DNA from: Sphagnum compactum
Taxonomy: Eukaryota
Reading direction: 5' to 3'
NCBI GenBank assembly: GCA_965153455.1
Contig: OZ234493.1
Span: 34,710,213 to 34,774,212, forward strand
DNA length: 64,000 nt
Position numbers and translations under genes: made by a program. The notes beneath the pieces are model-generated. The model was not told the origin of the DNA and did no database searches. It saw nothing but the letters and a program-made list of their open reading frames with translations. Positions 2,953 through 47,152 of this stretch are shown here, in pieces (within the stretch, counting starts at the first letter, position 1; the number at the start of each line of letters is the position of its first letter).

Positions 2953-3805
2953 GATTAATTTAAGAATGTGAACACATCAAAAATGTGAACACAAAAGAAA
3001 TCATCGCCAAACATAGGAGGGACCCTTGAGGTTCATTTTTTCTTTTTCAATTTTTAGACCCCACACCCATTTCCAGAAGGTGAGGAGGGCCATATGTAAA
3101 CATGCTATTTTGAGAGCGAATAGAAAGAAAAATCCATCACCAAGAGGTACCCATGTCCATCACCAATCATGGGAGAGACATCCATGTTCATTTTCTCTCT
3201 TACTTTTGACACAGCCCAATTCTATTCATCTCTCCTATCAATTAGATGAGGTGCCTTTCAAGTTGTTGTTGTTCTTCTTTTTTGGCAACAAGCCAATTTG
3301 ATTGGCCCATTACTCAAAAAAAGTGAAACTATGGAGGCTCCCCAAAATAGAAGGTTCTATTTTGAAGTATACCCATAACACATGAGGGCTTTTAGTACAC
3401 AATCAAACCCATACAAGGTTGATGATAGTAGCATGGGTTATGTTTTGGTTATGGCTGGTTCTAGTTTTAGAAGAGAACCTACTATACTGGTTTCAGCTTT
3501 TTATTTATTAATTAATTACAAAAACAATTGATACAAGCTCTGGTTGTGGTTCAAGCTTTAAGTAAGATTTTTTTTATTTTTTTTTTTTTTGGGGGGGAGG
3601 GGGTATTGATAAGTTTGGCAACAAGCCTCAAACCCTAACTACTGACTAGGGTAGCTTATTGTCCTCATAGAGCATGAGGAGAAGGGTCCAGTTGGTATTG
3701 AAGGTTTGGTATTTAAGTCTTATTATTGCAAAATTTAAATGGCTCAGGTAGTAAATTACATCATGAACATCAAGTGCTAAACTTAGTATTTATCATAAAT
3801 GTTTT

Positions 3806-3946
3806 AATTGAAATTATGTGTTGATGATGTTTGTGATGCAAATCGAATAGAAGAATTTACCTCAAACTTTGTAAATGTTCTAATTGAAATTATGTTTGAT
3901 GATGTTTGTGATGCAAATCAAATAGAAGCATTTGCCTCAAACTTTG
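3806..3946. repeat. Tandem duplication, ~76-bp unit x2
   Basis: AATTGAAATTATGT(G)TTGATGATGTTTGTGATGCAAATC.AATAGAAG.ATTT.CCTCAAACTTTG occurs twice, downstream of the PGK-like stop codon. Confidence 0.85.
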
Positions 3947-4139
3947 CTTTGGCATTTATTTTGCAAACATCAGAGCAACAGATCGTTGGCATGATGAATG
4001 TGCAAATGAGGCCATCTGGTGTGGGAATTCAGCCAGCACCTCAAGCACATGTAAATGTGAATAATGAAAAACCATGGGATCAATACATATCACTTGGATA
4101 TTGAACAGATCATGCATAAGTCATTTGAAAATGGAGTTG

Positions 4140-7100
4140 CTAGTAATTACTGTAGTTGGATTGATCATGTTGCTGCAGCTTCTTGTTGTTGTTATAAGTT
4201 TTGCCATTTTCAATTAGAGCTTTGACAGTTGGTAGGGCATATGGGTCACCCTCCTCCAGTACTTTGAGCACACTCCCACCTCCTGTGAAGAGGTAATACT
4301 TGGAGCTCTCCAGTGCAGCATGATACAATCCTGGATGCAAACTATTCCCCAATCACAATTGTCACACACCCACAATTCCAATTCATCAGTTCATGGACTC
4401 TCTACATTGTCCTAACAAGCCTTCTCTACTATTCAATGTATTCATGGACTGATTTGAAATCAAAGCCCCTGAAAGGTAGGATTTAGGTGTTATCCTACAG
4501 TTTTCAATTGGGTCACCAGAGTGTCTGAAGTTGTAATAATTGTGTAAAGATAACTTGGGTAGTCTGCTATTTCACAACACTCAAATTATGGACCTTGTTC
4601 AAGGATGTTGATTAATGTTAATTACCTTTTAAACTCCTGTAGAGTATCTCCACCACCAAAGAACTTTAGGGCAGAGCGGTTACGGTCAATGGTGGCATCC
4701 ATTTGGCTGGTGCCATGCCAGAATGTTGGCATGAAACCCATCACAGCATTCACGAATATGGTGCTGGCTGAGTCCAGCGCATCTAAGACTTCTTTTGTTT
4801 CAAATGAAGCCGGGTGTATATCCACAACATACTTATACTGTTGCCCTGCTGCAAAATCCTGCATCACCCCAACTCCAGATTGTTTTGTTTATGATACTAA
4901 ATAGCCAAAGAATTCTTAGATATGCTTAGCCTATCAAACTTCTCAAGGATGGACCCTTGTCTCACCACTACGGACAGCCACATACATGCCAATATTTTAA
5001 CTGGCACTCTGTAATCCATCCCTGATATGCAACCAGCTGCCATGGACTATTCTTTCACTTCCCCAGGCTGATTAATAACCAGAATGGACTGAGTGGGCAG
5101 ATTATAAAATTGTAATGGCTCAACTGTCTGTGTCCGAATCGGAACATTCCAGAACAATCCACACCAGCTAGGTTACTTACTGGTATGGGCCAGGTCTTGA
5201 CCTATTCCAGAGTAGATAACAGTGTAGCTTACAAACGCTTTCATCTTCCAAGTTGCATTGCCATTGATTTCAACTCTGAATGAAGAAAAGAGACGAACCC
5301 TTTGGCCTCCATGAAAATAACTTCAGGCAGGAGTTTGAAAACAACTATTTGGTTCAAAGAAACCATTATCTTAGTTCCCAAATAGAGGACAAGTGAAAAG
5401 AACAAAGTTGATTGACAATTTACCTTTGTGTTTATTGTCCGGAAGCGCCCTTCAAAGCGCCCTTCCAGTGTCTCAGTTTCAACCAGTAAAGGAAGCTCCA
5501 CAATTTTCTGGTCAGTCTTATCCTGCTCAACCAGGCCCCTTGCCAACTCTATATCTGAATCCTGCATCAAAAGAAAACAGCAATCAATATCAATTGTCAA
5601 CAATTTTGGTGATCCTCAGCCAAGTATGACAGCCAAGGTGCTTGCCTGTGCAGAATCAGCCCTACCCACTCTCTAGCATGAAGTGCACTGGCTGAATCAG
5701 CTGGGCCTCACCCACATAGGGCCCACTCTCCTAGGTTAAGAGCTAACATACAAGAATTGGCCAAAGCTTGGTGTATCAATTCTGTAGGGGCAAGTGGTCG
5801 GGCCTATTTAGTGCCCAAAAAAAAAGTCTCTACAAAAGAAGAATAGCACACAAGTGATCTGAAAAGGTTTGGAAATTTAGTACCCATTTGAGAATATAGT
5901 GTTCATGATCAGTCAAAGTTTCCTTGTACACAAGGTTACAGAAAACACTTGGAGAAATTTCCTGAGTGTATTTAGGCAGCTCCTTATATTCCTGAATAAT
6001 CCCCCTTAAAATTTGAAGAGATCTTCCACCTACTCCATAGTTAGTGGGAGTGATCTTATGCCTACAATAGGCGTAAGGTCCCTTCTACTCCTAAACAGTA
6101 AGATAAAATCCTTACCACTCCTCATGATCTTCTTATCTTTAAACTTTAGGCTTCTGATAAGGTTTAGGGTTTAGGTATCAATAAGAACTTGTTCCAACAT
6201 TTATTTTGCAAAAGAAAATTAAGAGTGCACACACACTACGGTACCTCCACACCCCTGATTTTGATGTTGTATTTGGCACAGAGAAACGTGTTGTAAATGA
6301 TTCCACCCAGAAGTAGCTTATCCACTTTCTTGTAAATTTCTGACAGAGGCCCAATTTTGGTGTCATACTTAGCACCCGCCACCACTGCCACGAAAGGTCT
6401 CTTGGGACTCAAGATCTCCTTCACATGGAACAGCTCATCCTGCACCGAAAAAAAAAAAGCAAACCTCAGGCTCTCATGTGATGCCTCCTGAATCATGCCT
6501 GAAATTATATAAAATTTTTCAAACCCTCTCATGTATCCCAAGAAACTCAGAAATTATAGAGCTATGCGATAATTCAATTCAAGAACCTGGAAAGAATCTG
6601 AACATTCCAGCAAAAAGATTGATCATCATGAACCCACAAGAAGAAGGTCTCCTAAAGATCATCATTCAGGAACTCACAACAAGAAGCTCTGCCTAAGATC
6701 ATGATTCATGAACTCACAAGAAGCTCCTCTGCCCAAGATCATGATTTATGAACCCACAAGAAAGCTCTGGTAAAGATTAGCTGCCATGAACCCACAAGAA
6801 GAAGAAGCTCTGAGCTATGTAACATTGTGGTTCAAGAGGACCTGAAGGCAAAGACCGGCATACGACGGCAGATATCTGGTGATGTGGGTAGTGGAAGCAT
6901 GAGCTTGCCATGAGCCGAATGCATCGTTCACAAACACGTCCGCTAAACCTGCCAATTGCACCACAAACCTCTCCATCTTCTCCCCTTTGTCCTCCTCCCC
7001 CTGCACATTCAAAGCTCACTCCAGCACCCATTGATTGCATCAGCTGATGAGTACACAGACAGAGACAGAGAGACAGAGAGACAGAGATTTGTGTGGAGCT

Positions 7101-7909
7101 GCAGGAGATTGGGATCTAGTACTGTACCGCAAACCAACGGGTGTTGGGCAAGTAGATGCCGGCGATTTTGCGGCTGCGCAAGTCTTGGATGAGCCAGTTG
7201 ATGGACGTGTCGATGTCTAAGATCCCTTCCTTCTCCGTTGCATGGAACTGCGGCACCGCGAACTTGATCCGCAGCTTGCGTTGCATGTATGCCACCACCG
7301 CATCCACCGAGTCCTCGTCTTTCTTGATCGTCAGCGTCTTCGTCTTCTTATCGAATGGACGCCCAATATGCGTCATTATGATCGGCCTGCAAGCAACCCA
7401 CCCACCCAACACACAAGGAAAAACTTGTCAGCTGCATTCAGTTCTCAGTACAGCACAAAAGCTTTCTAGAGGATTCTTCTACGACGGACGTGATCGATCA
7501 CATAGCAATCTAATGGAAAGAGACCCTTAGTACGTGTTGTACCTTCCACCGCGCTCAATGATGTTGTACATGGTCGCCAGCGTCACGTCGATCCGGTACT
7601 GGTCCAAAATCTTTCCTGCAAGAACGAAGAAGATCATGCAGAGCTTAAATATATCCTCAGAATGCAAAATTGCATCACAATCCCACAATAGGTAGAGTGA
7701 TCCGATCGACGCGGTCAACGGTCCCTGAAACGAGTGGTACCTTTCTTGACGACGTTATGATCAACTCGGAGAAGAACCACTTTGTCTCGCAGGTCAGCAT
7801 GTTGCAGAAGAGGAAGACGCTCGTCTAGTAGCGCGGGATCCCTGCAACCTTCTTCCACACTGTAGCCCACCTTCATCCCTATCTGATCCCCTGGAATGTA
7901 AGGCGCCAT
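4140..7909 (-). CDS. PGK: Phosphoglycerate kinase-like protein (divergent type), 8 exons, ~475 aa
   Basis: Exons 7909-7741, 7615-7543, 7386-7128, 7000-6842, 6439-6245, 5561-5424, 4858-4626 and 4341-4140 all have GT-AG introns, are phase-consistent and total 1428 nt. PGK motifs in order: RVDHNV, YRID, THIGRP, LPNTRWF, FVNDAFG, AGAKYDTKI, LLGG, GGGDT, FTGGGSVL. No transit peptide. Confidence 0.93.
6620..6812. repeat. Degenerate short tandem repeat in PGK intron 4
   Basis: About five imperfect copies of GATCATGATTCATGAAC(C/T)CACAAGAAG...CTC. Confidence 0.7.
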
Positions 7910-8040
7910 GATTATGATGATGATGATGATGGTCTCCTGCGGATGTTGCACGACGTAGCTGCTACAGTTATGAACTCTTCCTCCTCACAGTGCTCCACTC
8001 CCAAATGCTTGTTCTCTCACACCACCACAATAGACTCAGA

Positions 8041-8282
8041 GCTCTCTCTCTCTCTCTCTCTCTCCTACACTCTCTCCCTCTCCTACACTCTCTCTTACTC
8101 AAATCTCTCACAAGACTTCTCCTCTCACACACACACACACACACACACACAAAAACTGACGATTGCAGCAAAAGCACAAAACACAGTTAAACCTGAAACC
8201 TGACAAAAATTCCCCTTGAATGCTAAAGATTTCTCAGACAACCCATCTTCTTCTTCTTCTTCGTCTTGTGTGTGTGTGTGTG
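8041..8282. repeat. Microsatellites (CT)n, (CA)n and (TG)n in the PGK 5' region
   Basis: (CT)n at ~8042-8064, (CA)n at ~8126-8151 and (TG)n at ~8268-8282. There is also an (ATC)n run on the coding strand immediately upstream of the ATG. Confidence 0.9.
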
Positions 8283-9222
8283 CTTTTTGTCTGTGTGAGA
8301 AGAGCTGCAGCAAGTCTAGTGCTATGAGCTGCTAGCAACTGTAGAAACTATGCACAAGGAGATTTTTGCGCTCTGAAAATGAGAATTGAACATGTGAGAT
8401 CTTGTAGTAGCACCGTTTTTGTATTCCAAATTTGGGCATGCTCAACAACATCCAGTGTGCTAATCCAATCAAAATCCTGACCCAAATCCAGCACACTCTC
8501 AACAGTGACATGTGCAGTGCTAAATTCCAATTCATAAATTTCTTGATCCAAAATGTTCAGCACTTCCAACTTGGTGTGACACCTAACCCAATTCAAATTG
8601 TCACCCAAATTCAGCCCTCCTTGAGCAGTTACATTTGTGTACTAATCCCAAATTCTGACCCAAATTCACAGTGCACTCTTCTCAACATTTGTGTGCTAAT
8701 CCCAATTTCTGACCCAATTCATAGTGCACTCTCAGCATGGTGTGTAGCTACTCCAAATTTTGACCAAAACTCTTCTTGTTTAAAGGGAAATTCCCAGTCA
8801 AATCCTTCACTAGGTAGGTACTTTCACTAATGTCTAGTAAGCCTCCCTGCCACCCCAAACCCACCCCCCACAATTAATTTAATTTAATTTAATTAAAATT
8901 AATTTTTTTTAATTTAAAAAATCACAGGTTGATACCTAGTGACCATAGAAAGAAACTTCCAAATCCAAGTATAAGCGTTACCTTACTAAAAAAATCCTTG
9001 AAGGACTAAGAGTGTCATATCTCAAATGTTCCCAATTTTGAGTGAATTTGATGTGGTACTTTTTTCAAGGACCAAAAATGAGAAATTATGGCTTTGAGGT
9101 GAATATTTCTTGGATTTCATTAATTTTTTAATGGTGACAAAATTGGTTAAGTTGCCCTATTTAATGTCCAAGCTTGAGAATCAGCTTGGAAACAAAAAAA
9201 TTTAGAAGAATTTGAGAGACCC

Positions 9223-12393: not shown

Positions 12394-12723
12394 AAACCCT
12401 AGGGGTGAACCCAAAGCCCTAAACTCTAAACCCTAGGGGCAACCCCCAAGCTCTGAACTCTAAACCCTAGGGGCAATCCCCAAGCTTTAAACTCTAAACC
12501 CTAGGGGCAAACCTAAAGCCCTAAACTCTAAACCCCAGGGGCAAACCCAAAGCTCTGAACTCTAAACCCTAGGAGTGAACCCAAAGCCCTAAACTCTAAA
12601 ACCCTAGGGGCAAACCCAAAGCTCTGAACTCTAAACCCTAGGAGTAAACCCAAAGCCCTAAACTCTAAAACCCTAGGAACCCAAAGCTCTGAACTCTAAC
12701 CCTAGGGGCGAACCCCAAGCTCT
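12394..12723. repeat. 34-bp minisatellite (~10 copies) built from telomere-like AAACCCTA motifs
   Basis: Unit AAACCCTAGGGG(C/T)(A/G)AACCCAAAGC(C/T)CT(A/G)AACTCT. It ends ~80 bp upstream of the DUF1995 ATG. Confidence 0.92.
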
Positions 12724-12804
12724 CATCGTCTATCAAGCTTCACTTTGGGTTGTGGGTGTCCGTGTGTTGTATTTATTCTGAATCCCAGAAAGGATTTGGA
12801 TACT

Positions 12805-14022
12805 ATGGCAATGTCTGTAGGCAACTTCAGCTTGCTACCAGCAAGCTCGCCCATATCGCTCACTAGATTTGCCAATCCGTTGTCTTTACGTGTTGCATCT
12901 TGTTGTGTGTGGCATCAAAAGCACCCGCCTCTGGGAACAACAAGAATTTGGTGCTCAAAAATTGATAGAGCTTCATGGCATCAGAGCAGCTTGCGTCTTG
13001 TGGTAGTTTGGAGCTCCTCAAATGGAGCTTCATTGTGCCACCAAAAGTTGCACAATGGGTCATCAGTTTGGAGCCTAGAAGAAGCTCAATTCCATGGTTG
13101 GGGATCGCCCCCAGCAGTTTCTTCAACAAATAGAGGTGGCTCCAGAAGGTTCAGTGATTGCAGAGCATTGAGGAAAGAGGGAGGTGACGAAGAACTACCT
13201 CCAAGGAGCAGGGAGGAGGCAGTGGAACAAGCAGGAGCATCAGTATCAGCTCTCCTTGAGAAGGCACTGAAGAGACAAGGCCCCTCCACTGTGAAGCAAA
13301 GGAAGGAACAGAAACAGGTGAGGCTGAGAGTTGAGATTCCTGTGCTGGATGATTCCCCTGCCACTCTGGTCTCTCTTACTATTGACCTTCTAGCTTCTTC
13401 TTTCATCAACCAGAAGAAAACAGCACCCATCAAAAAGCTTGTGTTTCTCTCAGATACATCCTTGTTGAACCTAGCTCTTGAAAGGCAATCTGTGGGGGGA
13501 CAAGCTCCAGAGAGCCTTACAGGAATTGAGTTCAAGCTTTTGGCGCCAGAGAATGCTGCAGCAGCAAAAGTCACTTCAGAGGAGTCTCAGGTTTTATTCA
13601 TTGTGACTCCCAAATTGGAACAAGCTGCAATTGTTGCAAAAGTGTTGGAGGCTTTCAATCCTCGCCCAGTTGTGGTGCTGAATCCAGACTGGAGTTCTGA
13701 GGATGAAGCAGCAGACAAAGACGTGGCATGGGGAACCCTAATTTCATCTTTTGAGGTAACATACTCATATGTTCCTCTTGCTGTCCAAGGAATTTTTTCC
13801 AAGACTGAAGGAGCAGTCCTCAAGCATGTCAAGAGTGGAGCACCAGCAGGACGACCATGGCTCATCTTTGTGAAACAAAATGACCAATTCATTTGTGTAA
13901 GTAGTTTGCGACGACGACCTCAAGCTGCAGATTTAGAATCAGCTTTGTACAATTCCATGGCTGCTAACTCTCCAGTTACAAAGTCAATCCGGTTTCTTCG
14001 AGGGCTTGTTTCAAAGCAATGA
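12805..14022 (+). CDS. Intronless DUF1995-family protein, probably plastid-targeted (~405 aa)
   Basis: Single long ORF; first ATG at 12805. Ser/Arg-rich N-terminus resembling a transit peptide. PRSREEAVEQA...RLRVEIP...RPVVVLNPDW...SFEVTYSY match recalled motifs of plant DUF1995 proteins. Confidence 0.82.
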   Translation: MAMSVGNFSLLPASSPISLTRFANPLSLRVASCCVWHQKHPPLGTTRIWCSKIDRASWHQSSLRLVVVWSSSNGASLCHQKLHNGSSVWSLEEAQFHGWGSPPAVSSTNRGGSRRFSDCRALRKEGGDEELPPRSREEAVEQAGASVSALLEKALKRQGPSTVKQRKEQKQVRLRVEIPVLDDSPATLVSLTIDLLASSFINQKKTAPIKKLVFLSDTSLLNLALERQSVGGQAPESLTGIEFKLLAPENAAAAKVTSEESQVLFIVTPKLEQAAIVAKVLEAFNPRPVVVLNPDWSSEDEAADKDVAWGTLISSFEVTYSYVPLAVQGIFSKTEGAVLKHVKSGAPAGRPWLIFVKQNDQFICVSSLRRRPQAADLESALYNSMAANSPVTKSIRFLRGLVSKQ

Positions 14023-21560: not shown

Positions 21561-22335
21561 CAAAGGGTGAATTGGTATATGTTATATGTAGAATACATTA
21601 TTTATTGTTTCATGTGTTTGAAATTGGTTGCATATCATTTATTGACTGTAAAAAGAACATCACATAAATCAACATCAATTGAGGGGATTCAAAAATATTG
21701 ATCATTAAATGGTTATGATGTTGATTATAAATAATTTGGGATCTACTAAAAAACAAAAATTATTTTTCAAAATGGATGCATATTGTATTTACTAAAAAAA
21801 AATTTAAAAAATCATGATATTTTTAAATTCATGTGGCATAAATGCAAGTAAATTTGAATGGATTTTTATTGATAATTACAAATGTATATGCTATGTATTT
21901 TCATGTGATAAATGGAAATGTACATCATTATTCAAAATTGTTCATTGTAGATTGGTAACCAATGAAAATGTTTACATTTTTAATAATGTTTTCATCTAGC
22001 ATATGATGATTTAGCCAAATTTGGCTATGTACTATTTATGAAAATAGAAAAAAACAAAAATCCTTCTATATTCTTGGCTACCTACTAGAACTTATCATAA
22101 AAATTTGTCAAATTTGGATCATTTTTTTCATGAAAAATCCTTTATGTAGGTCGAAATCATATTTTTCAAGTTGAAATTTGGTGAAATTTCACACCAAAAA
22201 AAAAGAAACGCTGGTCACCATGGAGGTCTCCACATGTTTTGGGCCCACCTTGCACAACCAGTTTATGACCATCACTTGAAGAAAATCATAAACCCCAAAC
22301 AAGTTGATCAATCAATCAATTTCACATAATCAAGA

Positions 22336-23949
22336 ACTTAGCTTTCATCATGGCCCCCATCACGAAACTCTTACACAAAACAAAGGTGTTTGCATGGATT
22401 GCTGAATGTCAAGATGATTGGGAGGCCATTAAACAAAGGTATCTAAATGCACCAATTTTAATTGCACCCAAATGGGACATGGAGTTTCACATTCACACAG
22501 ACACATCAAATCTAGTAGTCGGGGCAATGCTAGCTCAAAATCCTACCGGAAAATGTGATCAGCCAATTCCATATGCCTCCAAACTTTTGAACAATGTAGA
22601 GAAAAACTACACCACCACTAAAAAAAAAACACTCACCATGGTTTATGTTTTGCATAAATTCAAACACTATATATTAGGAAACAAGTTTGTTTTCTACATT
22701 AACCACATGGCATTATTATACCTTGTCAGAAAACCTCAACTATCAAGACGAATTGCGAGGTGGCTGTTGTTATTCCTGGAATACGATTTTTTAGTGGTGT
22801 ACAAACTAGGGTGTTTTCATTCAGTGGCAGATGCTCTCTCACAACTTCCTGATGCTACCAAAAACCCAAGGGTACCTGACAGGACTATTAATGCATCGTT
22901 GTTTATACTTCAACCAAAATGGCTATAGGAAGTGCATACGTACATCTCTACCGAAAATGTTCCAAACAGATATTCCACGGAATAACAAAAGAAATTGGTG
23001 GTGCTAAAGGCAGTGTTTTTTACCATCATCAATGGAAAATTGTACAAATAAGGGCAAGATCAAATTTTGCACTGATGTTTGAATGATGAGGAGATTTTTG
23101 TAATCCTATAAGAAATGCACGAAGGAGTGGGTGGCGGACATATTTCAATGGACATCATAGTTCAAAAGGTGTTGGATGCCAAGTATTGGTCGCCAACTCT
23201 GCACAAGGATGCATAATAACATTGTCAATCCTATGATGTTTGCCACCTAACCAAAAATCTCTTACATACCCCATGGCAAAGTTGATCACCATGGTCCTAA
23301 CTGAACCATTCATGAAATGGGGTTTGGACTTCATTGGCCCCATTAAGCTTGTGAGTCACTCACACGGCAATAAATACATTTTGGATGTTACCGATTATGC
23401 AACCAAATGGGTGGAAGCAAAGGCATTAAGAACCAACATAGTTGTAGTCACAACTCAATTCATTTACGAGTTCATTTTGACCAAGTTCAGTTGCCCCTTC
23501 ACTTTGGTTAGCGACCAAGGTACCCATTTTATCAATGAGGCCATCGAGATCCTTACCACTCATTTTTTATTTCAGCACACTAGTTTTACAACTTACTATC
23601 CTCAGGGACATAATCAAGTAAAATCTACCAATTAGGTTATTGGGCTACTATTGACCAAGTTAGTCAACAAAAATCGCACAGATTGGGACAAACATCTCCA
23701 CACTGTTTTGTTTGCCAACAGAACAACTTTCAAGGTGGGCACAAATCATATTCCTTTCTAGTTGGTGTATGGATTACATGCTCTAATGCATATCAAATAC
23801 TTGTTATTTACGACCAATTCTACAACATCTTAGGATTTCGCCATGACACGACTACTTAATACCCAACTAATGGATTTAGAAAAGTTAGAGGAATCCCGGA
23901 CACTTGCAGCAAAAACCATAGGTAGGCAACAATGGAATCATGCACTATG
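22336..23949 (+). mobile_element. Decayed Ty3/Gypsy pol fragment (RT end, RNase H, integrase), non-chromovirus-like
   Basis: RNase H motifs HTDTSNLVVGAML...YASKLL..EKNYTTT. Integrase motifs [22 protein letters not shown] and SDQGTHF. Stops and frameshifts; cut off at 23949 by another element's LTR. Confidence 0.9.
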
Positions 23950-24771
23950 TGTCGTAACCCTACTTTAAAGAGAATGTGAGGATGAGACTCACACTCCCAA
24001 AATGGGGACTTGGGAGTCCTCCGTGACTCCCAAAACTTCAGAGTTCGATTGCAAGGGTCAAAACACCTTGCATTGATGAGTTATTTATATCATTGAAAAG
24101 ATATTGAAGTGTAGATGTCGAAAATGGGCTTGCATGAGCCATTTGGACATCTACAGCACAAGTTATGGTCAAAAGAAGGGTCGGAGGTCAAATTGACAAT
24201 TTGACTCCTGGCCACTAAAAGTCGAGAATTGACCCGACCCCGGTGCGTGCAGGTAAAATGCGACATACCATTGGAAAGCTCTCAACAAGAGCTACAACTT
24301 TGCTTCAGACCTTGTCCCAATCAGAGGTCTGAGCAAAGAGTTATACTCTTGCAAAGTTGCGGGAGTCCAAACCGGGACAGTTTCAGGACTCCTCCTTGGG
24401 AGTCCCGGGATAAAAAGCCATTCGGATTTAGGCTCCGCGAAAAGACGCAGAGAATACTATATGGGAAAAGGTGGTGGCTTCCCCCGAGTCCGGGCCGTGG
24501 TGAGTCTTGTGAGTCTAGAGTTGCCCGTGGCTTGTCCTAACACTAAAGGTGATCCAGAAAGTGAACTAACCAACTTGTTGGTTGGTTTGATGCAGATTCG
24601 AATGAGTAACTAAAGCTTGTCACTGTTCCTAGTCCCATCTCGGAGCCTCAGCACGCCCCGTTGCCCCTTTTAGTGCTGAGAGCTGGGAGCGTGCCCCGAG
24701 TTCCTCACAATTCCGTTGTTTAAATAACTTGGACCCATCTTGGGTCTAATTAGGAACTTGGGAGCGCATCA
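23950..24771 (+). mobile_element. 5' LTR (~822 bp) of the second Ty3/Gypsy element
   Basis: Begins TG(TCG) and ends (GCAT)CA. It is followed by the tRNA-iMet-type primer binding site and then gag. Confidence 0.8.
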
Positions 24772-24774
24772 TGC

Positions 24775-24785
24775 GGTATCAGAGC
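24775..24785 (+). promoter_or_regulatory. Primer binding site (tRNA-iMet type)
   Basis: GGTATCAGAGC, the canonical plant (T)GGTATCAGAGC PBS, a few nt after the LTR end. Confidence 0.8.
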
Positions 24786-24821
24786 TCCGGTAGGGCTCGA
24801 TTCACCTCTTGGGAGTTTTAG

Positions 24822-27800
24822 ATGGCACCCAAAAAGAACCGTAAGCAAGCACAAGAGGCCATGTTAAAAGAACCCGCCAAAGACTGAGTAGTCCCACCGG
24901 AATCTATTTGGGAGGAAGAACCAAGAACCCGGGAGGACCAAGATGAGCCCGAAAGTGAAGAGGAGCAACGGAGCTCGGTCCTATTCACCCCGAAGCAATT
25001 GGAAGTCCTCCTCAAAATGAATAGGCTCGACTTCAGTGAGTTGGTTGCGGCCCTCAAAGGGGGGTCATCCAAAGATGCAAGATTTCAACCGGCCAAACCT
25101 GGGAACTTTGATGGTGCCCGAGATTGAAAGGTTGTGGATGTTTGGCTTGCCGAAATGGAAGATTACTTACATGCCGCCAAGTTGGACGGCACCCGGCCGT
25201 GGAGCTTGCCCAATCCTACTTGAAAGGCTATGCTGCCACATGGTGGAGGATGGTGAGACAAGAGGAAGGGAAACATCATGGTTACACTTGGGAATTCTTT
25301 AAGGAATGCGTCGAAACCAAATTTGTCCCAAGGAATTTCGATTACATCTCGAGGTGCAAACTCCGCGACCTTGTGAATGCCACAAATGACAACTTGCGGC
25401 AATATGTGAGGGCATGTTCCGAACTCATGCTTGAGATCCGGCATATGCATGAGCTGGATCGCGTGTGCCAATTTGTGATGGGGCTTCCAACTTGGGCCAA
25501 GCGTAAGCTTGAAGAGAATCGGCCCACTTTACTATCCGAGGCCATCATGAAAGTGGAAGGCTTCTCGGATGTGGGACGACGCGAAAAATTCGGGTTCAAG
25601 AAGGACAACAAGTTCCTTCACAAAAAGCCACGCCATGAGGGAGAATGGACCGAGGGCAAGAAAGCTCAAGAAAGGAAAAGCCCAAACAGTTCCAAGGCTC
25701 GGGGTTCAAGCCCAAGGGAAATTTTGTGAAGAAGGGGGCTCCTTTCAAAGCAAGCCAACCTAAGGGAAATGTTGGTGGGAAGCCCAAGGGAGCATGCTTC
25801 AATTACAATGAAGTGGGACATTACTCCAAATATTGTCCCAAGCCCAAAGCGGGGAATGGGGGCTCTAAGGTAATTGCCCTCAACGCCAACCTAGCCCAAG
25901 TTGAATGCAATCGACTTATTTTCTTGAAGGGGAAGATTGCTAAGCGGGATGTGTTATGTCTTTTGGACACAGGGGCTTCTCACAACTTCATAACCCGAGA
26001 AAACGCAAAAAGAATGGAGCTTCAATTGGAGGAGCTCAAGGCACCCATCGAGGTGCACTTCGCAGATGGGGTTCCCCATCCCACTACGTTACAAGCAAAG
26101 GAAATGCCTCTTCAACTAGGGAATTGGAGAAGAAAGGTGGACTTGCTAGTTTTCACCTTGGGTGGAATGGATTGCATTTTGGGAATGGAGTTCATCACCC
26201 AAAACAATGTGCTCATAGAAGGGCACAATAGACTAGTTAGAATTTCGTCTAAAAGCGGGATCATGAAGGTGAAAGCACACGAAATGCCTTGTGTGAGTGG
26301 ATCAACCATCCACTTTATGTTAGGAAAAACCTGGGAAAGAGAATGCATGGGAGGTTATGGCATGATGTGTGTGATGTGGGTGTTGGACGAGTTTGAGCCA
26401 AAGGAAGCTACCAACTTGGTGACTCCCTTCAAGTGCATAAAGCAAGTTTTGGAAGAGTTCCCGGATGTGATGCTCGAATAGTTGCCCGAGGACCTGCCCC
26501 CAAGAATATGAGTTGATCATGCGATCGAGGTGATGCCGAGAGTGGCACCTCCCGCCAAGGCCCCATATAGAATGAGCCATGAGGAGTTGAAAGAGCTTAA
26601 GGTTCAACTTGAAGAACTCCTCGCAAAGGGTTATATTAAACCTAACAAATCACCATATGGGGCACCCGTCCTTTTTGTTCACAAGAAGGATGGGACGTTG
26701 AAGATGTGCGTGGATTATAAATCCCTCAACAACGCAACGGTGAAGAACCGGTATCCATTGCCTCAGATTGATGATCTTTTTTATTGACTCTCGGAAGCTA
26801 AGGTGTTTAATAGGATTGACTTACGTTTGGGATATTACCAAATTCGGATTGCAAAAGGGGACGAAGAAAATACTGTTTGTCGCACAAGGTATGGCTCATA
26901 CGAATTCTTGGTGATGCTTTTTGGGCTCACCAATGCACCCGCCACATTCTGCACTCTCATAAATGACATTTTCCAGGAATGGCTTGATGATTTTATCGTC
27001 GTCTACATAGACAACATTTTAATCTATAGTGGCTCTTTGGAGGAGCATGCGGAGCACCTTTGGAAGGTGTTCCAAAAGCTAAGGGAAAATAAGTTATATG
27101 CCAAGCTCGAGAAGTGCGAATTCAAAATGACGGAAGTGGACTTCCTTGGACATAGGATCACTCAAGAGGGTTTAAAGATGGACGATCACAAGGTGAAGGC
27201 AACTTTGGATTGGGAACCGCCTAACTCGATTCCGGCCTTGAGATCCTTTTTAGGATTTGCCTCCTATTATCGCAAGTTTATCAAGAACTTTGCGAAGATA
27301 GCCGCACCCTTGACAAACCTCTTGAAAAAGTCCGCCGGAACTTACAAATGGGATGGAGCATGCGATGAGGCCTTTCAGACCTTGAAAAACATTTTGGTGA
27401 AAACGCCAGTGTTGAAGTTACCTGACTTTGACAAGGATTTCGAGATTCACTCCGATGCCTCCGACTTTGCAATTGGAGGAGTCCTAGTGCAAGAAGGAAG
27501 ACCGGTGGCAATTGAGAGCAAGAAGTTGAGTGAGACGGAGCGAAAATGGCCTACACATGAGAAGGAAATGTGGGCCGTCATACATTGTTTCAAAACTTGG
27601 GGCCATTACATAGGTTCCAAGGATGTGGTGGTGTGGACCGACAATGTGACCTTGAAGTACTTTGCCACTCAACCCAAGTTGTCATCAAAACAAGCGAGAT
27701 GGCAAGACACATTGGCCTTGTTCAATGTGGACATTCGACACAAGCCCGGGAAGGAGAACATAATGCCCAATGCGCTAAATCGGAAACACCAACTTAAAGT

Positions 27801-28603
27801 GGTGTTTGTGGGAGAAACAAAACTTCAAAAGGAAGTTCGATTAGCGGGCTGCCATGACAAGTTTGCCAAGGAAGTGAGGCAAAACATTCAAAATGGAGTC
27901 AAGTCACACTTCCACTTGCAAAATGGACTATTGTGGTACAAGCAAAATCGACTTTATGTGCCGGAAGGGAAGATGAGGGATATCATCTTGAATGAATGTC
28001 ATGATGGGCCGCTTGCGGACCATGGTGGTGCAAAACGCACCACAACATTCCTCAATAAGTCCTACTATTGGCCCAACTTGAAAGATATTGCGGAGGAGTA
28101 TGTGAAGACTTACTTGACTTGCCAACAAAACTGGACACTTAACAAGAAGCAAGCAGGTTTGTTGCAACCTTTGCCAATTCCTGAAGGGCCGTGGGAAAGT
28201 GTGTCCATGGATTTCATGGTAAGCTTGTCGTCATCAAAGGGTTTTGATACCATCATGGTGATGGTGGATTGGTTTAGCAAAATGGCACACTTCATTCCCA
28301 CCAAGGATAATGCCACGGCCCAGGAAACAGGTAGGTTGTTCTTCACACACGTTTTCAAACATCATGGCCTCCCAAAGGACATAGTCTCGGGTCAAGACCC
28401 AAAGTTCACGGGCAAGTTTTGGCGAGCCTTATGGAAGTGCATGGGATTGGAATTCAAGATGAGCACTTCCGTCCCCAAACCGATGGACAAACCGAGAGAG
28501 TGAACTTGGTTATCCAACAATTCCTAAGGAATTATGTGGCGACAAATCAACAAGATTGGGTGGACCATTTGGAGTTAGTCGAGTTTTGTTACAACAACTC
28601 GGA
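24822..28603 (+). mobile_element. Ty3/Gypsy gag-pol pseudogene (gag-PR-RT-RH-INT), chromovirus-like, 3'-truncated
   Basis: Gag LKGYAATWW, decayed CCHC knuckle CFNYNEVGHYSKYC, protease LLDTGASHNF, RT VYIDNI (YIDD mutated), RNase H SDASDFAIGGVL, integrase PWESVSMDF and HFRPQTDGQTERVN. Several stops and frameshifts; no 3' LTR found. Confidence 0.95.
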
Positions 28604-30369: not shown

Positions 30370-33300
30370 TTAGAAGACTGGACAGCCATCAACAGCAATC
30401 CCTGGGGCAGTTGGACACGTTGCTAATGGGCAATTGTCGAGATTTACACCCCACCAATTGATAGCCTTGTTTTCATATTGGAGGCAAAAGTAGAGAGTAA
30501 CACCCATAAACGCAAGCCCGGCATCCAGAGCTGCTGACAACACGTAATTGTAACGCTGCCACCAAGCTTTGCGGTACTTGAAAAGCACATAATTGAAAAT
30601 AAAGCCAACCAGGAACCAGGCTGTGTAATTTATTGACGTTGCGGGTGGCATACCTCCAGTTGCCCCAATCAAGATTGGCATATTGATGTAGAAGAGCCAT
30701 TTTTGGTTTGGAAATACTTTTGTCAATAACCAAACAGGCACGGGTGCCAGCAATCCTATTAAGAAAAACCAGTTTATAGCTTTGTAGAGTCCAAGGGCAC
30801 CAAACATGCGCTTGGGCCCAATCAAACCCCAGATCACTGAAGCATCATAAAAGACTCTGTCCCCTGGACATGTCCAGGGGCTATTTGGAGGCAGCAGTTC
30901 AGGTTGGCAAATATATGCTATAGTTGAGATTTGCCACCATGCCGTGGATAAAGTCACCAATGCTGCTATGACTGTCCCAACTATCTGCAAAACAAAAATC
31001 TCAAAAACAATGACCATCAGCAAATCTGAAGCTTAAGACACATATGTGTTGAATATAATATGAAGGTTTTGTTCTCAAAACAGTACTTCTGCACAACATC
31101 AAGCTGCATAAATTGAACTTAATGCCTCAAAAAATGCATATGGTTGGTGTCCATGAGTTACTTGGGTTTTGCAAACTGAACTTGAAATTCAAGCAAGCAA
31201 TAACAAAGTGTGTACCTGAGCATGGAACATGGACCGAGGAGGGATTTTCATATAGTGACCTGCATTAAGTACCCGCAAGCTGTGTAGCATTAGCATGAGT
31301 ACTAGACAATTTGATACTTCATACTAGGGAGAGGGAGATACATGCAATTCTTCATGAAAGCCACACAAACCAAGAGTATGAAAGTATGACCTAATTTGAA
31401 GTCCGCTAGGAAGGAGACAGCCTGTGTCATACTTATGTAACCATACGTCTTGAAACACACATTGGCAACAGGTCTGCCTGGATAGAGATACCCAATAATA
31501 AGCTCTGTGATTATATTGAGGCCTGGAAGCTGTAGCCAAAATGACATCAAAAACACATTCAGCATCAAGGAGTGATCTCAAGGCAAGGTGTAAGACAATG
31601 TGGGTTTTTCTGAATTACCACCCAAATTGGGGCTCTACAAAGTATAGTAGTAACGTATAGGTTTTTCCTGGTAAAGTAGAAAATTGCATACAATGGGTTC
31701 ACAATTTCTATGAATGTGACCATACTTGAAGAGCCACATGATGCATTGAAGAAAGTACTCTACATGAATAAAGGACTTCGAAAAGGAAGGTGAAATATCA
31801 GCAAGTGATCGATTAATCATGGGGATGGGCTGAAGACTCCCGGAGACAAATTGAGCAAAACCAAAATGAACTTAGATTAATGTGAAAATGACTAACCTGA
31901 TTTGTTGTGGCGCAAATGACCCCAAGGGGAAGAGTAAAGAAAAAGGCAATGCCACACGCAAGTAATACACCCCACCATCGCAGTTGAAGTTGGTCAATGA
32001 ATATCTCACAACCCAGAATGGAGATGATTATCATACTGATTAGCAGGCCAACAAAGTAAGCTTGTGGCACCTCCTTATATGCCCTCATGAGACGAGTGTG
32101 CACATCATCTTTCTCACTTAAAGTGTTCTTATAGCGTTGCCATATTTCCCTGCAACAGATTGAAAGATGTACCACCATTTGTTCAGTAGTGATCAGGTAG
32201 AGATCTCACCAGTTAGGAGCCACAACTTTGAAATTTTTCCCAGAATGATAGTGAGAGCTAAAATGGGCACAAGTCTCCAACATTACCGGCCATGGAAGAG
32301 TGCAACATGTGAGATGGTTGCAGCAAGGGCAGCAAACCCAACTCCATAAGTTACAGCAAAAAAAGTGCTCAGGTGCAAGCGGCCATATGCATTGTAAGCC
32401 GGTTCATCCAGCTGAAAATTCTCAGTAATCACCGCACTGACGTTATATGTTTGGCCAGTTGAGGTGAAAAACTGGCTTGAAAATATAGGGAATGTTCTAG
32501 CATTGTAGACGTTGCCCCAATAGAAAGCAGGTGTAAGCACATATGTGATAAGTGCAAAACCCACAAATACATTCAGAATGGCAAAGAAAGGTGTCCCCAT
32601 TGGACTTCCCAGGAAGGAGCTAACAGTTGACCAGTCCAAGGCAATGGCACCTATACCAAGGCCATACAAACCTGAGCCCAACTGTTGGGCTGTCACTGAA
32701 TTTGGCCATGCCCAGCAAACCCAGGAGAGAGATGTCAACATGTTAAACAGGTAGCCAGGCATCACATAGTAGCAATAGCTGCATGTGAGAGCTATGAGAA
32801 AAAATTGAAATCGGGTTAAGCCACCTTTTACCCGTACATCTTTCTCATGCATAGTTCTGCACACACACGCACACACAACATACACCATACAGTTCATGAA
32901 GCAACCTAGTTGCATAACATGAATCCCACTGAGAATTTGAGCTTCCCCCTCCCCACCCCTTCAGACCTGCCTTTCTTCCTAGAATTCATGTTGATGTTGC
33001 TAAGATTTGCAGTCTGGGGCTTGTAATAACCAATTGGTACCTGAAAAGAGAAACTTGGACAAGGTTTGCAGGCCACCACATATGTGCAGGCTTGACCAGA
33101 TAGCCTTGGAAAATTCCTGCCCATCCATATCCAATCATCTGTGAACACAAAAAAGTCTCTCACAATATCAAATGTCGGTGATATACTTAGGCACCCCAAA
33201 GTACACACATACACACATATATATACATCACTCTTTGAGTTCCATCAACAATCCTTAAAAAAGCAGTAGATGATCTCAATTGGGCACAAATAAAACCCAA

Positions 33301-34756
33301 TTTTCTTCCTCCTCCCAGGCATGACTGTCATCTTATAAGGCAGTAGTAACTGGGATCAACTTTTCTTATCAGTGCAGTATAGCATAGATTACCCTAATAG
33401 TCAAAGGCACGGCATGGGTGGTTAGGTGATCAAAGGCCTTGATGATTTTGTGAGCGGGGTTTGTAGCACCTGAAAAGAATTTAAGCACATGAGGTTAGAA
33501 ATCCCTACTTGGGTAGTGATGGTGATAAGTAAGCCAACAAAGAAGGTCATCCGCCTCTTGTAGAATACTTTGACAATGGTGACGATATTGATGGCATATG
33601 CACCTCCAGCTCCCGCATTAGCAAAGATGGTAATCAAAACATGTTCTTTCATGTTGAAGGGCCCAGGGTTGAGAGACCCACGCCAATTGGTGAATGGAAC
33701 CTTCCACACAGTAGTGGGCAAAAATGTAGCCATGAGGCGGCCTAATGGCAAGGTTGCAATCTGAGCGGAGAGTGCAGTCACCTGCAATGGCTCAATGCGG
33801 TACCCGAAGAATTGATTGATAAATGCCAACAGGACACATGAAATAATTCCTAAAGTCCACATGCGGAATGTGTACACAGGCATTGTTGTATCATCTGTTG
33901 TTGCCACCGTAAGTGCAACTTCTTCAATTGGTGACTGATCATCAGGCTCTTGGATATCTTTATCTTTTTGCCCATGAGAATTATTCCCAATATCATAACC
34001 CAAAGCTGTGGCATCCAAATCTTCTGTGTCTCCCTTTTCCATTCCTGTTACAAGAAAACCATTCAAGACACAACTCCATAAGCTTGGATTGTGTGAGCAG
34101 AGCAGGCTGTGTTTTGTTGCAGTTTTGTCACAGAAATTATGGTTTGGACAGAGACACTCAATCATAGCCCGTAAGCAGAGATTGATTTGTTCCATGGAAG
34201 AATTAAGAGTCAAATGAAACTCCTGCAGAATTCTTGCTTGCATGAAAAAAACAGGGAAGATTTCAAGGAATTGAACATCTTAAACAACAACAACAACAAC
34301 AAGAGAAAAATCTTGGCAAGGGAATAAGCAAAAGACCACAGGAACATGTGGGGATTCACAGAACAGAGATGATGTTGGCAAGCTCACCACAAGACCTTCA
34401 GGGAAATGCAAAAGACAAGAACATGAACATGTGGGATTCAAAACAAAGATGTTGGCAAGCTCCACAAGCTCTTCAGGGAAATGTAGAAGACAAGAACATG
34501 GACATGTGGGGATTCACACAACAGAGATGATGTTGGCAAGCTCACCACAACATCTTCAGGGAAATGCAAAAGACAAGATGTCGTGGGGATTTGCAACAGA
34601 GATGTTGTTGGCAAGCTCCACAAGTGGATCCTCAGCAGGGAAGTACAAAAGAGAGACATGTTTCTTTCTTGGGGAAAAACAAAGAAACAACACTGAGAAG
34701 AAACAACAACCCATTGAAGTTATACCTTTCATTTCAATGTGATCGGAAGCAGCCAT
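30370..34756 (-). CDS. OPT: Oligopeptide transporter (OPT family, PT clade), 8 coding exons, ~761 aa
   Basis: Exons 34756-34726, 34044-33509, 33138-33041, 32856-32287, 32149-31897, 31529-31391, 31259-31216 and 30984-30370 are GT-AG, in phase and total 2286 nt. Signature motifs [39 protein letters not shown] and CPLATCPT. Confidence 0.95.
34310..34625. repeat. Tandem repeat in OPT intron 1
   Basis: Several imperfect copies of ATGTGGG(G)ATTCA...AGATG(ATG)TTGGCAAGCTC(A)CCACAA...TTCAGGGAAATG. Confidence 0.8.
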
Positions 34757-46800: not shown

Positions 46801-47152
46801 GTGCAAAATCCCCAGCGTGGCTACGCTACTGAGCCGCATTCGCATGCGCTTGGCCGGGCACATCGCACGCATGGACGACCAACGTCTGCCCAAACAGGTG
46901 CTATTTGGCCGCCTGCCGGAGGGCCGCAAGCGTCTCGACAAGCAAAAGGCCCGCATCCAGGATGCATATAGCCTAGACATTGCTAGTTTGAACAAGCACT
47001 TTCATTGGCGGCGACACGATGAACAACAGTGGTGGGACACGGGGCAAGCTGGGGACCGGGCCAGATGGGCGGCGTGCTTGGATGCGCTCTGGCCGCATAA
47101 GCCACTCTCGACAGTGGCGGAGCTCATACCTCCACGTGTAATTGATTGATTG
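43811..47152 (+). mobile_element. GC-rich non-LTR retrotransposon (RTE-like LINE), APE endonuclease plus RT, inactivated
   Basis: APE motifs IGTYNVTTL, GVQETHW, AYAPT and LGDFNA. RT motifs QMGFRP, FVDLTKAYDS, VRQGCNIAPTLF, LFYADD and FTYLG, then RTE-type LPTLLYGCESW, AGHIARM and RLPKQVL. (ATTG)n 3' tail. 11-bp TSD ATATTCAACAC at 43800-43810 and 47153-47163. Confidence 0.95.

Follow-up and report, generated by a model that had tools for sequence, protein, structure and literature searches.

The 64,000-nucleotide stretch of contig OZ234493.1 from Sphagnum compactum analysed here (the window) carries on its minus strand, from 7909 to 4140, a gene for a divergent protein of the phosphoglycerate kinase (PGK) family. 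The gene is intact, transcribed and correctly spliced. The reading we favour, at a probability of about 0.6, is that it encodes a non-canonical PGK-fold protein of the PGK4A type, derived from a bacterial paralogue by transfer and acting as a phosphotransferase outside mainstream glycolysis and the Calvin cycle. The bacterial origin and the separateness of the lineage are real, and both are already in the literature (Yue et al. 2012; Foflonker & Blaby-Haas 2020).

Read on the minus strand between 4100 and 7960, the gene has eight exons and seven introns, each of them GT..AG. Joined by script, the exons give a coding sequence of 1428 nucleotides, or 475 codons and a TAG, with the start ATG at 7909-7907 and the stop at 4142-4140 (all coordinates are positions within the window). 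The introns fall after codons 57 (phase 1), 81 (phase 2), 167, 220, 285 and 331 (all phase 0) and 409 (phase 2). RNA contigs of runs X1 and X3 contain all seven introns as joints, CT..AC on the plus strand and at the predicted exon ends, and a single 2433-nucleotide contig of X3 carries all eight exons. Joints for two of the seven introns were found in run X7 and for two in the raw polyA reads of X24, the latter from only nine reads. Summed contig depth in X1 is about 135-255 in exon bins against about 11-20 in intron-only bins, and the transcript is present in RNA runs from several studies. An earlier note, made from the sequence alone, had described a spliceable gene for a 475-residue protein of PGK fold and had proposed RNA sequencing as a check of its exons; the splice joints of X1 and X3 bear out the model at 7909..4140.

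Residue positions are given in the numbering of human PGK1. Exon 1 (7741..7909, on the minus strand like all that follow) encodes a land-plant-specific N-terminal extension and the motif RVDHNVVKK, and is followed by the phase 1 intron with its joint at 7614/7740. Exon 2 (7543..7615), bounded by that joint and by 7385/7542, encodes ...KILDQYRIDVTLATMYNIIERGG, with an Arg that aligns with canonical Arg38. Exon 3 (7128..7386) holds THIGRP, the N-domain insertions specific to the subfamily, and LPNTRWF. Exon 4 (6842..7000) encodes NDAFGSWQAHAS, with a Gln at the position of the canonical third 3-phosphate Arg, and matches Pfam PGK at 48.6 bits. Exon 5 (6245..6439; 54.1 bits) encodes AGAKYDTKI, in which both Lys are retained and the Asp has moved by one position, and exon 6 (5424..5561) a segment of the C domain with the five-residue insertion of the subfamily. 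Exon 7 (4626..4858; 36.9 bits) encodes FVNAVMGFMP, which lacks the ribose-binding acid, and GGGDTLQEFK. Exon 8 (4140..4341), reached by the joint 4341/4626, encodes FTGGGS, the C-terminal helix and the stop. RNA joints and the alignment bear out exons 3 to 7. The 5' untranslated region (UTR) runs over 7910..8029, the limit of the RNA contigs, with pieces of X1 and X3 ending at 8027 and 8029; the 3' UTR spans at least 4000..4139, and contigs of X1, X3 and X7 cover 4000-4343.

The spliced protein is identical in 470 of 475 alignment columns to a 473-residue protein of Sphagnum jensenii (P0001). At 4179-4185 on the minus strand, in the Asn/Lys-rich C-terminal tail, three or six bases are missing from the RNA contigs of other runs; the difference in tail length is probably allelic or between species, since it matches P0001, which is two residues shorter. 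Translated singly, five of the eight exons match Pfam PGK at E <= 1 and three of the eight exceed the curated 27-bit cut-off, and full-length P0001 matches PF00162 at 267.4 bits, covering positions 2-377 of the 379 in the profile. The only NCBIfam match is to PRK13962, a PGK/TIM model, which scores 189-211 bits where the cut-off is 883, and the protein passes no NCBIfam equivalog model, the curated test of a canonical PGK.

No solved structure of any subfamily member was found in the PDB, where the top match by sequence is a canonical PGK (E 2e-38). An AlphaFold (AF2) model built on a 56-sequence subfamily alignment has a predicted local distance difference test score (pLDDT) of 89.8 and a predicted TM-score (pTM) of 0.86, with residues 1-26 disordered. 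Every PDB match listed by Foldseek for this model is a PGK (target-normalised TM 0.73-0.88, 23-28% identity, E down to 6.6e-30), and the model has the two Rossmann-like domains and hinge of solved PGKs. The ESM Atlas returned only clusters named 'phosphoglycerate kinase', with a score of 0.90. The roughly 34 residues ahead of the PGK core are acidic, not Ser/Thr-rich and disordered in the model, and the absence of a transit peptide, as the earlier note had it, is plausible. Residues 1-34 (7909-7810, minus strand) form an extension of the pattern MAPY...VGYSV-acidic-G that is common to the land-plant copies and missing from those of Klebsormidium and bacteria. It is modelled as disordered (pLDDT about 40) and could be a regulatory tail.

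The relatives of the gene are spread over green plants and bacteria. With the 86 residues of exon 3 as query, and longer proteins allowed, 443 proteins were found at E <= 0.001 among 485 candidates, of which 120 were listed. About 54 of these 120 are of streptophyte type, with 61-99% identity. Those with names come from Sphagnum (two paralogues), Ceratodon, Physcomitrium, Marchantia, Riccia, Calypogeia, Selaginella, Diphasiastrum, Adiantum, Ceratopteris, Ginkgo, Taxus, Klebsormidium, Spirogloea and Mesotaenium; Nothoceros, Psilotum and Pinus were added by cluster look-ups, and no angiosperm name stands among the 120 listed matches. The remaining listed matches are bacterial, with 56-65% identity. 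In the 56-sequence alignment the mean column identity is 56%, and plants and bacterial members share 53-63%. Streptophyte and bacterial proteins are thus about 55-65% identical to each other, against about 23-38% to canonical PGKs. An exhaustive HMMER scan of 1.84 billion cluster representatives gave one close representative, at 544 bits, and a few intermediates of 38-43% identity, all with SWQ or SHQ and three of four with RWF (P0162 has RFF); canonical PGKs begin near 150 bits, at 31-38% identity.

The subfamily is encoded in the genomes of at least 585 bacterial species, with Desulfobacterales and further Thermodesulfobacteriota, Nitrospirota, Rokubacteria and Planctomycetota in the titles of their records. 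All five bacterial genomes checked encode both a canonical PGK (493-554 bits against PF00162) and a protein of the subfamily type (262-274 bits). With two PGK genes in each of the five, the subfamily is therefore a paralogue that coexists with canonical PGK in bacteria, and not the housekeeping enzyme. In two gene models of Spirogloea (P0051 and P0052) the PGK-like domain is joined to a C-terminal DUF1365 (PF07103; 150.8 bits by scan in P0051, by precomputed annotation in P0052), which may be a real fusion or two adjacent genes merged by annotation.

Two trees were built, both by a quick IQ-TREE run under LG+C20+F+G4 with support from the Shimodaira-Hasegawa-like approximate likelihood ratio test (SH-aLRT). 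The first held 85 rows picked from the listed matches, with five canonical PGKs of the same bacterial genomes as the outgroup. The second held 62 rows, made up of a subset of these together with six marine eukaryote-like sequences, five divergent representatives and four metagenome rows; one locus, L133, was left out of it for an in-frame stop. Both trees separate canonical from subfamily sequences with an SH-aLRT of 100; the branch is very long, measuring about 10 changes per site in the first. In the first tree, all 25 named streptophyte rows and 10 unnamed ones form one clade (99), which stands in a polytomy with the bacteria. In both trees the window protein is grouped with those of K. nitens, Selaginella, Marchantia and Physcomitrium at 99 support. 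In the second, a marine clade resembling green algae (99) is sister to the streptophytes (99) with support of 85, the pair is nested among bacterial and metagenomic rows, and branching within the streptophytes roughly follows the species tree. Neither tree nests the streptophytes within one named bacterial group. The streptophyte clade, as sampled by these sequences, ranges from Klebsormidium to gymnosperms. The sister position of the marine clade suggests that the acquisition is older than land plants, and transfer from a bacterium to the green lineage, followed by intron gain, is the most economical reading.

The earlier note had proposed a separate PGK lineage, resembling a divergent bacterial subgroup, that might be an old horizontal acquisition with introns gained later. 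The closest non-plant relatives are indeed such a subgroup, the separate lineage is upheld by the split in both trees and by the failure of every NCBIfam equivalog model, and the transfer stands as the most economical reading; the lineage and the transfer had both been published before.

Foflonker & Blaby-Haas (2020, Mol Biol Evol; PMC7826186) defined the PGK-like subfamilies PGK2, PGK3, PGK4A and PGK4B. PGK4A is described there from prasinophytes together with streptophytes that diverged early, and in Mamiellophyceae it adjoins ArsJ, GAPDH3 (a glyceraldehyde-3-phosphate dehydrogenase, GAPDH) or both. In the supplement's table, which is arranged in tree order, consecutive rows 361-373 hold proteins from Bathycoccus, two Ostreococcus, two Micromonas, two of K. 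nitens, Marchantia, Selaginella and four of Physcomitrium, and rows 374-386 hold the PGK4B set, angiosperms included. The two K. nitens accessions of the PGK4A block, A0A1Y1HW31 and A0A1Y1I4I4, are our P0045 and P0044; since both group with the window protein, the window gene is assigned to PGK4A. A Physcomitrium protein (P0024) falls in the same clade; its UniProt accession, A9S9Y1, was not found in the supplement. The assignment agrees with a clade separate from canonical PGK and with a streptophyte window that has no ArsJ or GAPDH neighbour, and the PGK4A neighbourhood with ArsJ and GAPDH was reproduced independently on the marine contigs described below. The paper has no Sphagnum, hornworts, ferns or gymnosperms in its sampling, and leaves the residues of the active site and the many bacterial members undiscussed. 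Its main text gives the PGK4B fusion as the sole non-canonical PGK of land plants, whereas its own supplement contains bryophyte and lycophyte PGK4A.

A second published gene is probably the same one seen from another side. Yue et al. (2012, Nat Commun; PMC3493653) reported a Physcomitrella gene, 'Phosphoglycerate kinase (PGK) (2)', as a horizontal transfer with Delta-proteobacteria as the donor. Like the window gene, it is a moss PGK with no homologue in Arabidopsis and with its nearest relatives in Delta-proteobacteria. The nearest bacteria found here are from records titled Desulfobacterales, Desulfarculus and similar, and Physcomitrium is represented in the clade by P0024; we infer that PGK (2) belongs to the same gene lineage. 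In contrast to that account, the streptophytes here stand outside any single named bacterial group, and the marine algal sister suggests an older acquisition.

PGK3 (Chlamydomonas Cre07.g354250) and PGK4B are, like PGK4A, non-canonical PGK-like lineages of the green line. PGK3 likewise adjoins ArsJ and GAPDH3, and a Chlamydomonas pgk3 insertion mutant is sensitive to arsenate (PMC7826186). It is a separate subfamily, reported as kin of Actinobacteria, Chlamydia and Deinococci. PGK4B joins a PGK-like domain to a TrmB-like methyltransferase, for example in rice LOC_Os10g30550 (PMC7826186). Unlike PGK4B, the subfamily of the window gene carries no such domain: PF02390 was absent from P0001 (PF00162 only) and from the 120 listed relatives. 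A fusion of the PGK4B type was also sought among 12 long proteins picked from the 150 best representatives; all 12 proved to be canonical PGKs without PF02390. Five of them have a second domain known to Pfam (TIM in two, flavodoxin, CBS, iPGM or RbfA), while PF00162 stands alone in the others.

Much of the canonical active site is kept. Conservation was judged from the 56-sequence alignment and from its alignment to canonical PGKs (EC 2.7.2.3), and the roles of residues were taken from a review (PMC7729029). According to that source, Asp23 and Asn25 contact the 2-hydroxyl, while His62, Arg65 and Arg122 lie at the 3-phosphate. These five, together with Arg38, Lys215, Lys219, Asn336, Asp374 and Thr375, are near-invariant across the subfamily, and the phosphoryl-transfer set of Arg38, Lys215, Lys219, Asn336, Asp374 and Thr375 is invariant in the alignment. 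The GGGDT and TGGG loops are retained in the translation. The subfamily thus resembles canonical PGK in its two-domain fold and Pfam family, in its carboxylate and 2-hydroxyl residues, in two phosphate-binding Arg, in both catalytic Lys and in the GGGDT loop that binds Mg and phosphate. It is unlike canonical PGK in its low identity, in Gln170 and Trp169, in a displaced Asp218, in the lack of the ribose acid and in five subfamily-specific insertions, three in the N domain (about 7, 9 and 2 residues) and two in the C domain (5 and 7). The earlier note had named five altered motifs and had held that the His-Arg of DAFGTAHR and the Glu of GVFE were absent while the catalytic Arg, Lys and the GGGDT and TGGG loops were kept. 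All five (RVDHNVV, LPNTRWF, DAFGSWQAHAS, AGAKYDTKI and VNAVMGFMP) are in the translation, and the residue changes are invariant across the subfamily; the His-Arg is Trp-Gln in all members, the acid is deleted, and the catalytic residues and loops are invariant or present in the alignment. On our reading of these sequences, phosphotransfer chemistry and the site for the glycerate head group would be preserved, while the anion patch, the latch that closes the domains and the pocket for the ribose would be rebuilt.

Gene neighbourhoods connect the subfamily with arsenate in marine algae. A metagenome scan with the subfamily alignment gave 80 loci, and a further 80 loci from bacterial genomes were treated as a separate set. 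In 47 of the 80 metagenome loci the fetched flanks contain an ArsJ-type transporter of the major facilitator superfamily (MFS), a GAPDH homologue or both (MFS in 37, GAPDH in 35, both in 25). Scanned GAPDHs passed the NCBIfam model of the ArsJ-associated enzyme (463 and 502 bits, cut-off 450), and the three MFS proteins scanned all fell under the 400-bit cut-off of the ArsJ model (391.6, 391.1 and 346 bits). Fourteen marine contigs with a GC content of 0.44-0.50 (L091-L104) share further features: ArsJ lies upstream of the PGK-like gene in 11 of them, 12 have a PHO4 phosphate transporter as the second gene downstream, and a conserved gene of about 500 codons with no Pfam or NCBIfam match lies downstream in 13. 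Ostreococcus, Bathycoccus, many chlorophytes and Mesostigma are represented among the best 120 of 1297 ArsJ homologues. ArsJ-type transporters of 55-57% identity are also annotated in the hemichordates Ptychodera, Glandiceps and Saccoglossus, an unexpected distribution among animals.

Taken as a whole, the favoured reading is as follows. The lineage would have begun as a bacterial paralogue of PGK. A horizontal transfer would have brought it into the green lineage before streptophytes diversified, possibly before prasinophytes and streptophytes split. Spliceosomal introns would then have been gained, and the gene would have passed vertically from algae of the Klebsormidium grade to bryophytes, lycophytes and ferns and on to gymnosperms. 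The protein is expected to be a hinge-bending phosphotransferase of two domains that moves the terminal phosphate of a nucleotide to and from the carboxylate of 3-phosphoglycerate (3-PG), or of a very close 2-hydroxy-acid analogue, with three rewired parts: the patch for the anion or 3-phosphate, the latch that closes the domains and the pocket for the ribose. Its role would lie outside mainstream glycolysis and the Calvin cycle. Marine green algae have the subfamily in a cluster with ArsJ and the arsenate-linked GAPDH, which would serve arsenate export; this cluster is not adjacent in mosses.

A number of points weigh against this reading, the first of them in the active site. The review (PMC7729029) gives the canonical basic patch that binds the 3-phosphate as Arg65, Arg122 and Arg170, places closing salt bridges between Asp218 and both Arg65 and Arg170, and identifies the acid of GVFE that binds the ribose hydroxyls as residue 323 of B. 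stearothermophilus PGK; the basic-patch and closure residues are described as essential. In the subfamily, GTAHR is replaced by GSWQ, one residue shorter, so that Arg170 becomes Gln in all 56 members and His169 becomes Trp; the equivalents of Arg65 and Arg122 remain. VSDK is YDTK throughout, with Asp218 displaced, and GVFE is replaced by VNAVMGF--(M/T)P, in which a two-residue deletion removes the ribose-binding acid from the whole subfamily. With Gln170, Trp169, a shifted Asp218 and no ribose acid, the enzyme might thus act on a substrate other than 3-PG or take phosphate from a donor other than ATP. The trees are also open to question, as quick reconstructions rooted on a very long branch, built without plant canonical PGKs and with the green-lineage node at 85. 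As to function, no homologue of ArsJ or ars-GAPDH occurs at any of the 80 loci from bacterial genomes or anywhere in the window. No embryophyte is among the best 120 of 1297 ArsJ homologues, and the arsenate link may not apply to mosses. No conserved bacterial partner emerged from Pfam annotation of 86 open reading frames (ORFs) of nine loci or from clustering of 509 neighbouring ORFs of the 80 loci. The largest cluster of neighbours, sensor kinases, is found at 18 of the 80, and phosphofructokinase (PFK) lies downstream of the PGK-like gene at eight, all with Nitrospirota titles. Finally, the authors who defined PGK4 state its function as unknown (PMC7826186), and a literature search returned no later paper characterising PGK4 and no activity data for PGK4A.

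Synteny of the bacterial neighbours is limited to single clades and involves sensor kinases, DUF72, alpha/beta hydrolases, UPF0047 and LpxK. A gene for a divergent, 454-residue class II aldolase-like protein lies upstream at two of the 80 bacterial loci. Two loci titled Nitrospirota, L048 (6631-11787) and L032 (6482-11954), carry in turn the aldolase-like gene, the PGK-like gene, a divergent PFK and a second PFK; that of L032 is known by similarity only. Linkage to PFK and the aldolase-like gene was considered as a guide to function and set aside, being real but confined to eight and two of the 80 loci respectively.

The strongest alternative, which we hold to be possible but distinctly less probable than the favoured reading, is that the protein has a new specificity and no longer interconverts 3-PG and 1,3-bisphosphoglycerate with ATP, using instead another acid (an arseno-, sulfo- or longer phospho-hydroxy acid) or another donor (another nucleoside triphosphate or pyrophosphate). 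The invariant Gln and Trp in place of the third phosphate Arg and its neighbouring His are consistent with this, as are a second new Trp where ENLRF has become PNTRWF throughout the subfamily, the loss of the ribose acid and the change of the Val flanking the adenine to Phe, Leu or Tyr. So are the coexistence with canonical PGK in all five bacterial genomes checked, the position in marine algae beside enzymes that make and export 1-arseno-3-phosphoglycerate, and the second PFK of L048, which adjoins at that one locus and passes the model for the pyrophosphate-dependent enzyme (594.8 bits, cut-off 550). However, the carboxylate and 2-hydroxyl residues, two of the three phosphate Arg, His62 and the contacts to the nucleotide phosphates and Mg are all kept, PFK adjacency is confined to the eight loci named above, and the pocket still looks built for a molecule like 3-PG and a nucleoside di- or triphosphate. 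Altered specificity for substrate or nucleotide is plausible on these residues, but the pattern fits either a 3-PG kinase with changed regulation or anion sensitivity or an enzyme with a shifted substrate or donor.

That the gene encodes an ordinary isozyme, divergent but functionally redundant with phosphoglycerate kinase, seems improbable. Databases do label the proteins of the subfamily phosphoglycerate kinase, the PGK domain and fold are full-length, the catalytic residues are intact, and some of the Nitrospirota-titled loci include genes of glycolytic type (aldolase-like and PFK). Against it, canonical PGK is also present in all five genomes checked, the sole NCBIfam match reaches 189 bits against 883, and residues of the basic patch and of domain closure that are described as essential (PMC7729029) have changed. 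The identity of 55-65% between bacteria and plants, set against about 23-38% to canonical PGKs, argues for constraint on something specific.

A non-catalytic PGK-fold protein (a pseudoenzyme or regulator), a pseudogene or an assembly contaminant is scarcely credible: several canonical substrate- and nucleotide-site residues are missing, but Lys215, Lys219, Arg38, Asn336 and the GGGDT residues are invariant in 56 sequences, the open reading frame, spliced mRNA and RNA runs from several studies speak against a pseudogene, and bacterial contamination is ruled out because the gene has seven spliceosomal introns and lies near plant-type genes and retrotransposons, among them an OPT transporter and Ty3-type ORFs.

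To judge from these neighbours, the gene lies in ordinary plant chromatin. A DUF1995 ORF of 438 residues (Pfam) occupies 12706-14022 on the plus strand, followed on the same strand by the gag, aspartic protease, reverse transcriptase, RNase H and integrase ORFs of a Ty3/gypsy-type long terminal repeat (LTR) retrotransposon (22308-28503). The oligopeptide transporter (OPT) gene lies on the minus strand at 30370-34279 with at least three exons, which match positions 2-127, 143-326 and 468-623 of the Pfam OPT profile. The GC-richest stretch of the window, 44001-47149 (0.61 at 44-46 kb), carries reverse-transcriptase (RVT_1) fragments in several adjoining frames, at 45-47 kb, and is probably a decayed retroelement. 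Closer to the PGK-like gene, (CT)n, (CA)n and (GT)n microsatellites at 8030-8300 lie directly upstream of the 5' UTR, a (GA/CAGA)n run at 7047-7089 lies within intron 3, and a direct duplication of about 70 bp at 3800-3935 lies just past the RNA-covered 3' UTR. Rfam gave no match in the whole window.

A wider proposal, which we consider rather doubtful, is that PGK4A represents a widespread class of acyl-phosphate-forming kinase to which the altered anion patch (Arg170 to Gln, two new Trp) and ribose pocket would give one of two properties: insensitivity to arsenate and other anions, or specificity for them; or the use of a donor other than ATP, such as pyrophosphate. In the first case PGK4A would sustain the recycling of 3-PG and glyceraldehyde 3-phosphate, or would handle an arseno- or other non-phosphate hydroxy-acid, where analogues of phosphate had poisoned the ordinary enzyme. 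In either case streptophytes would have retained a bacterial tool from algae to gymnosperms, with a loss in flowering plants. Over hundreds of millions of years, a PGK paralogue from bacteria has persisted under strong constraint in algae, bryophytes, ferns, gymnosperms and hundreds of bacterial species. Its active-site changes fall at the residues that bind phosphate, latch the domains and hold the ribose, which makes it a well-defined place to look for a new reaction, or a new mode of regulation, in the metabolism of central carbon or arsenate.

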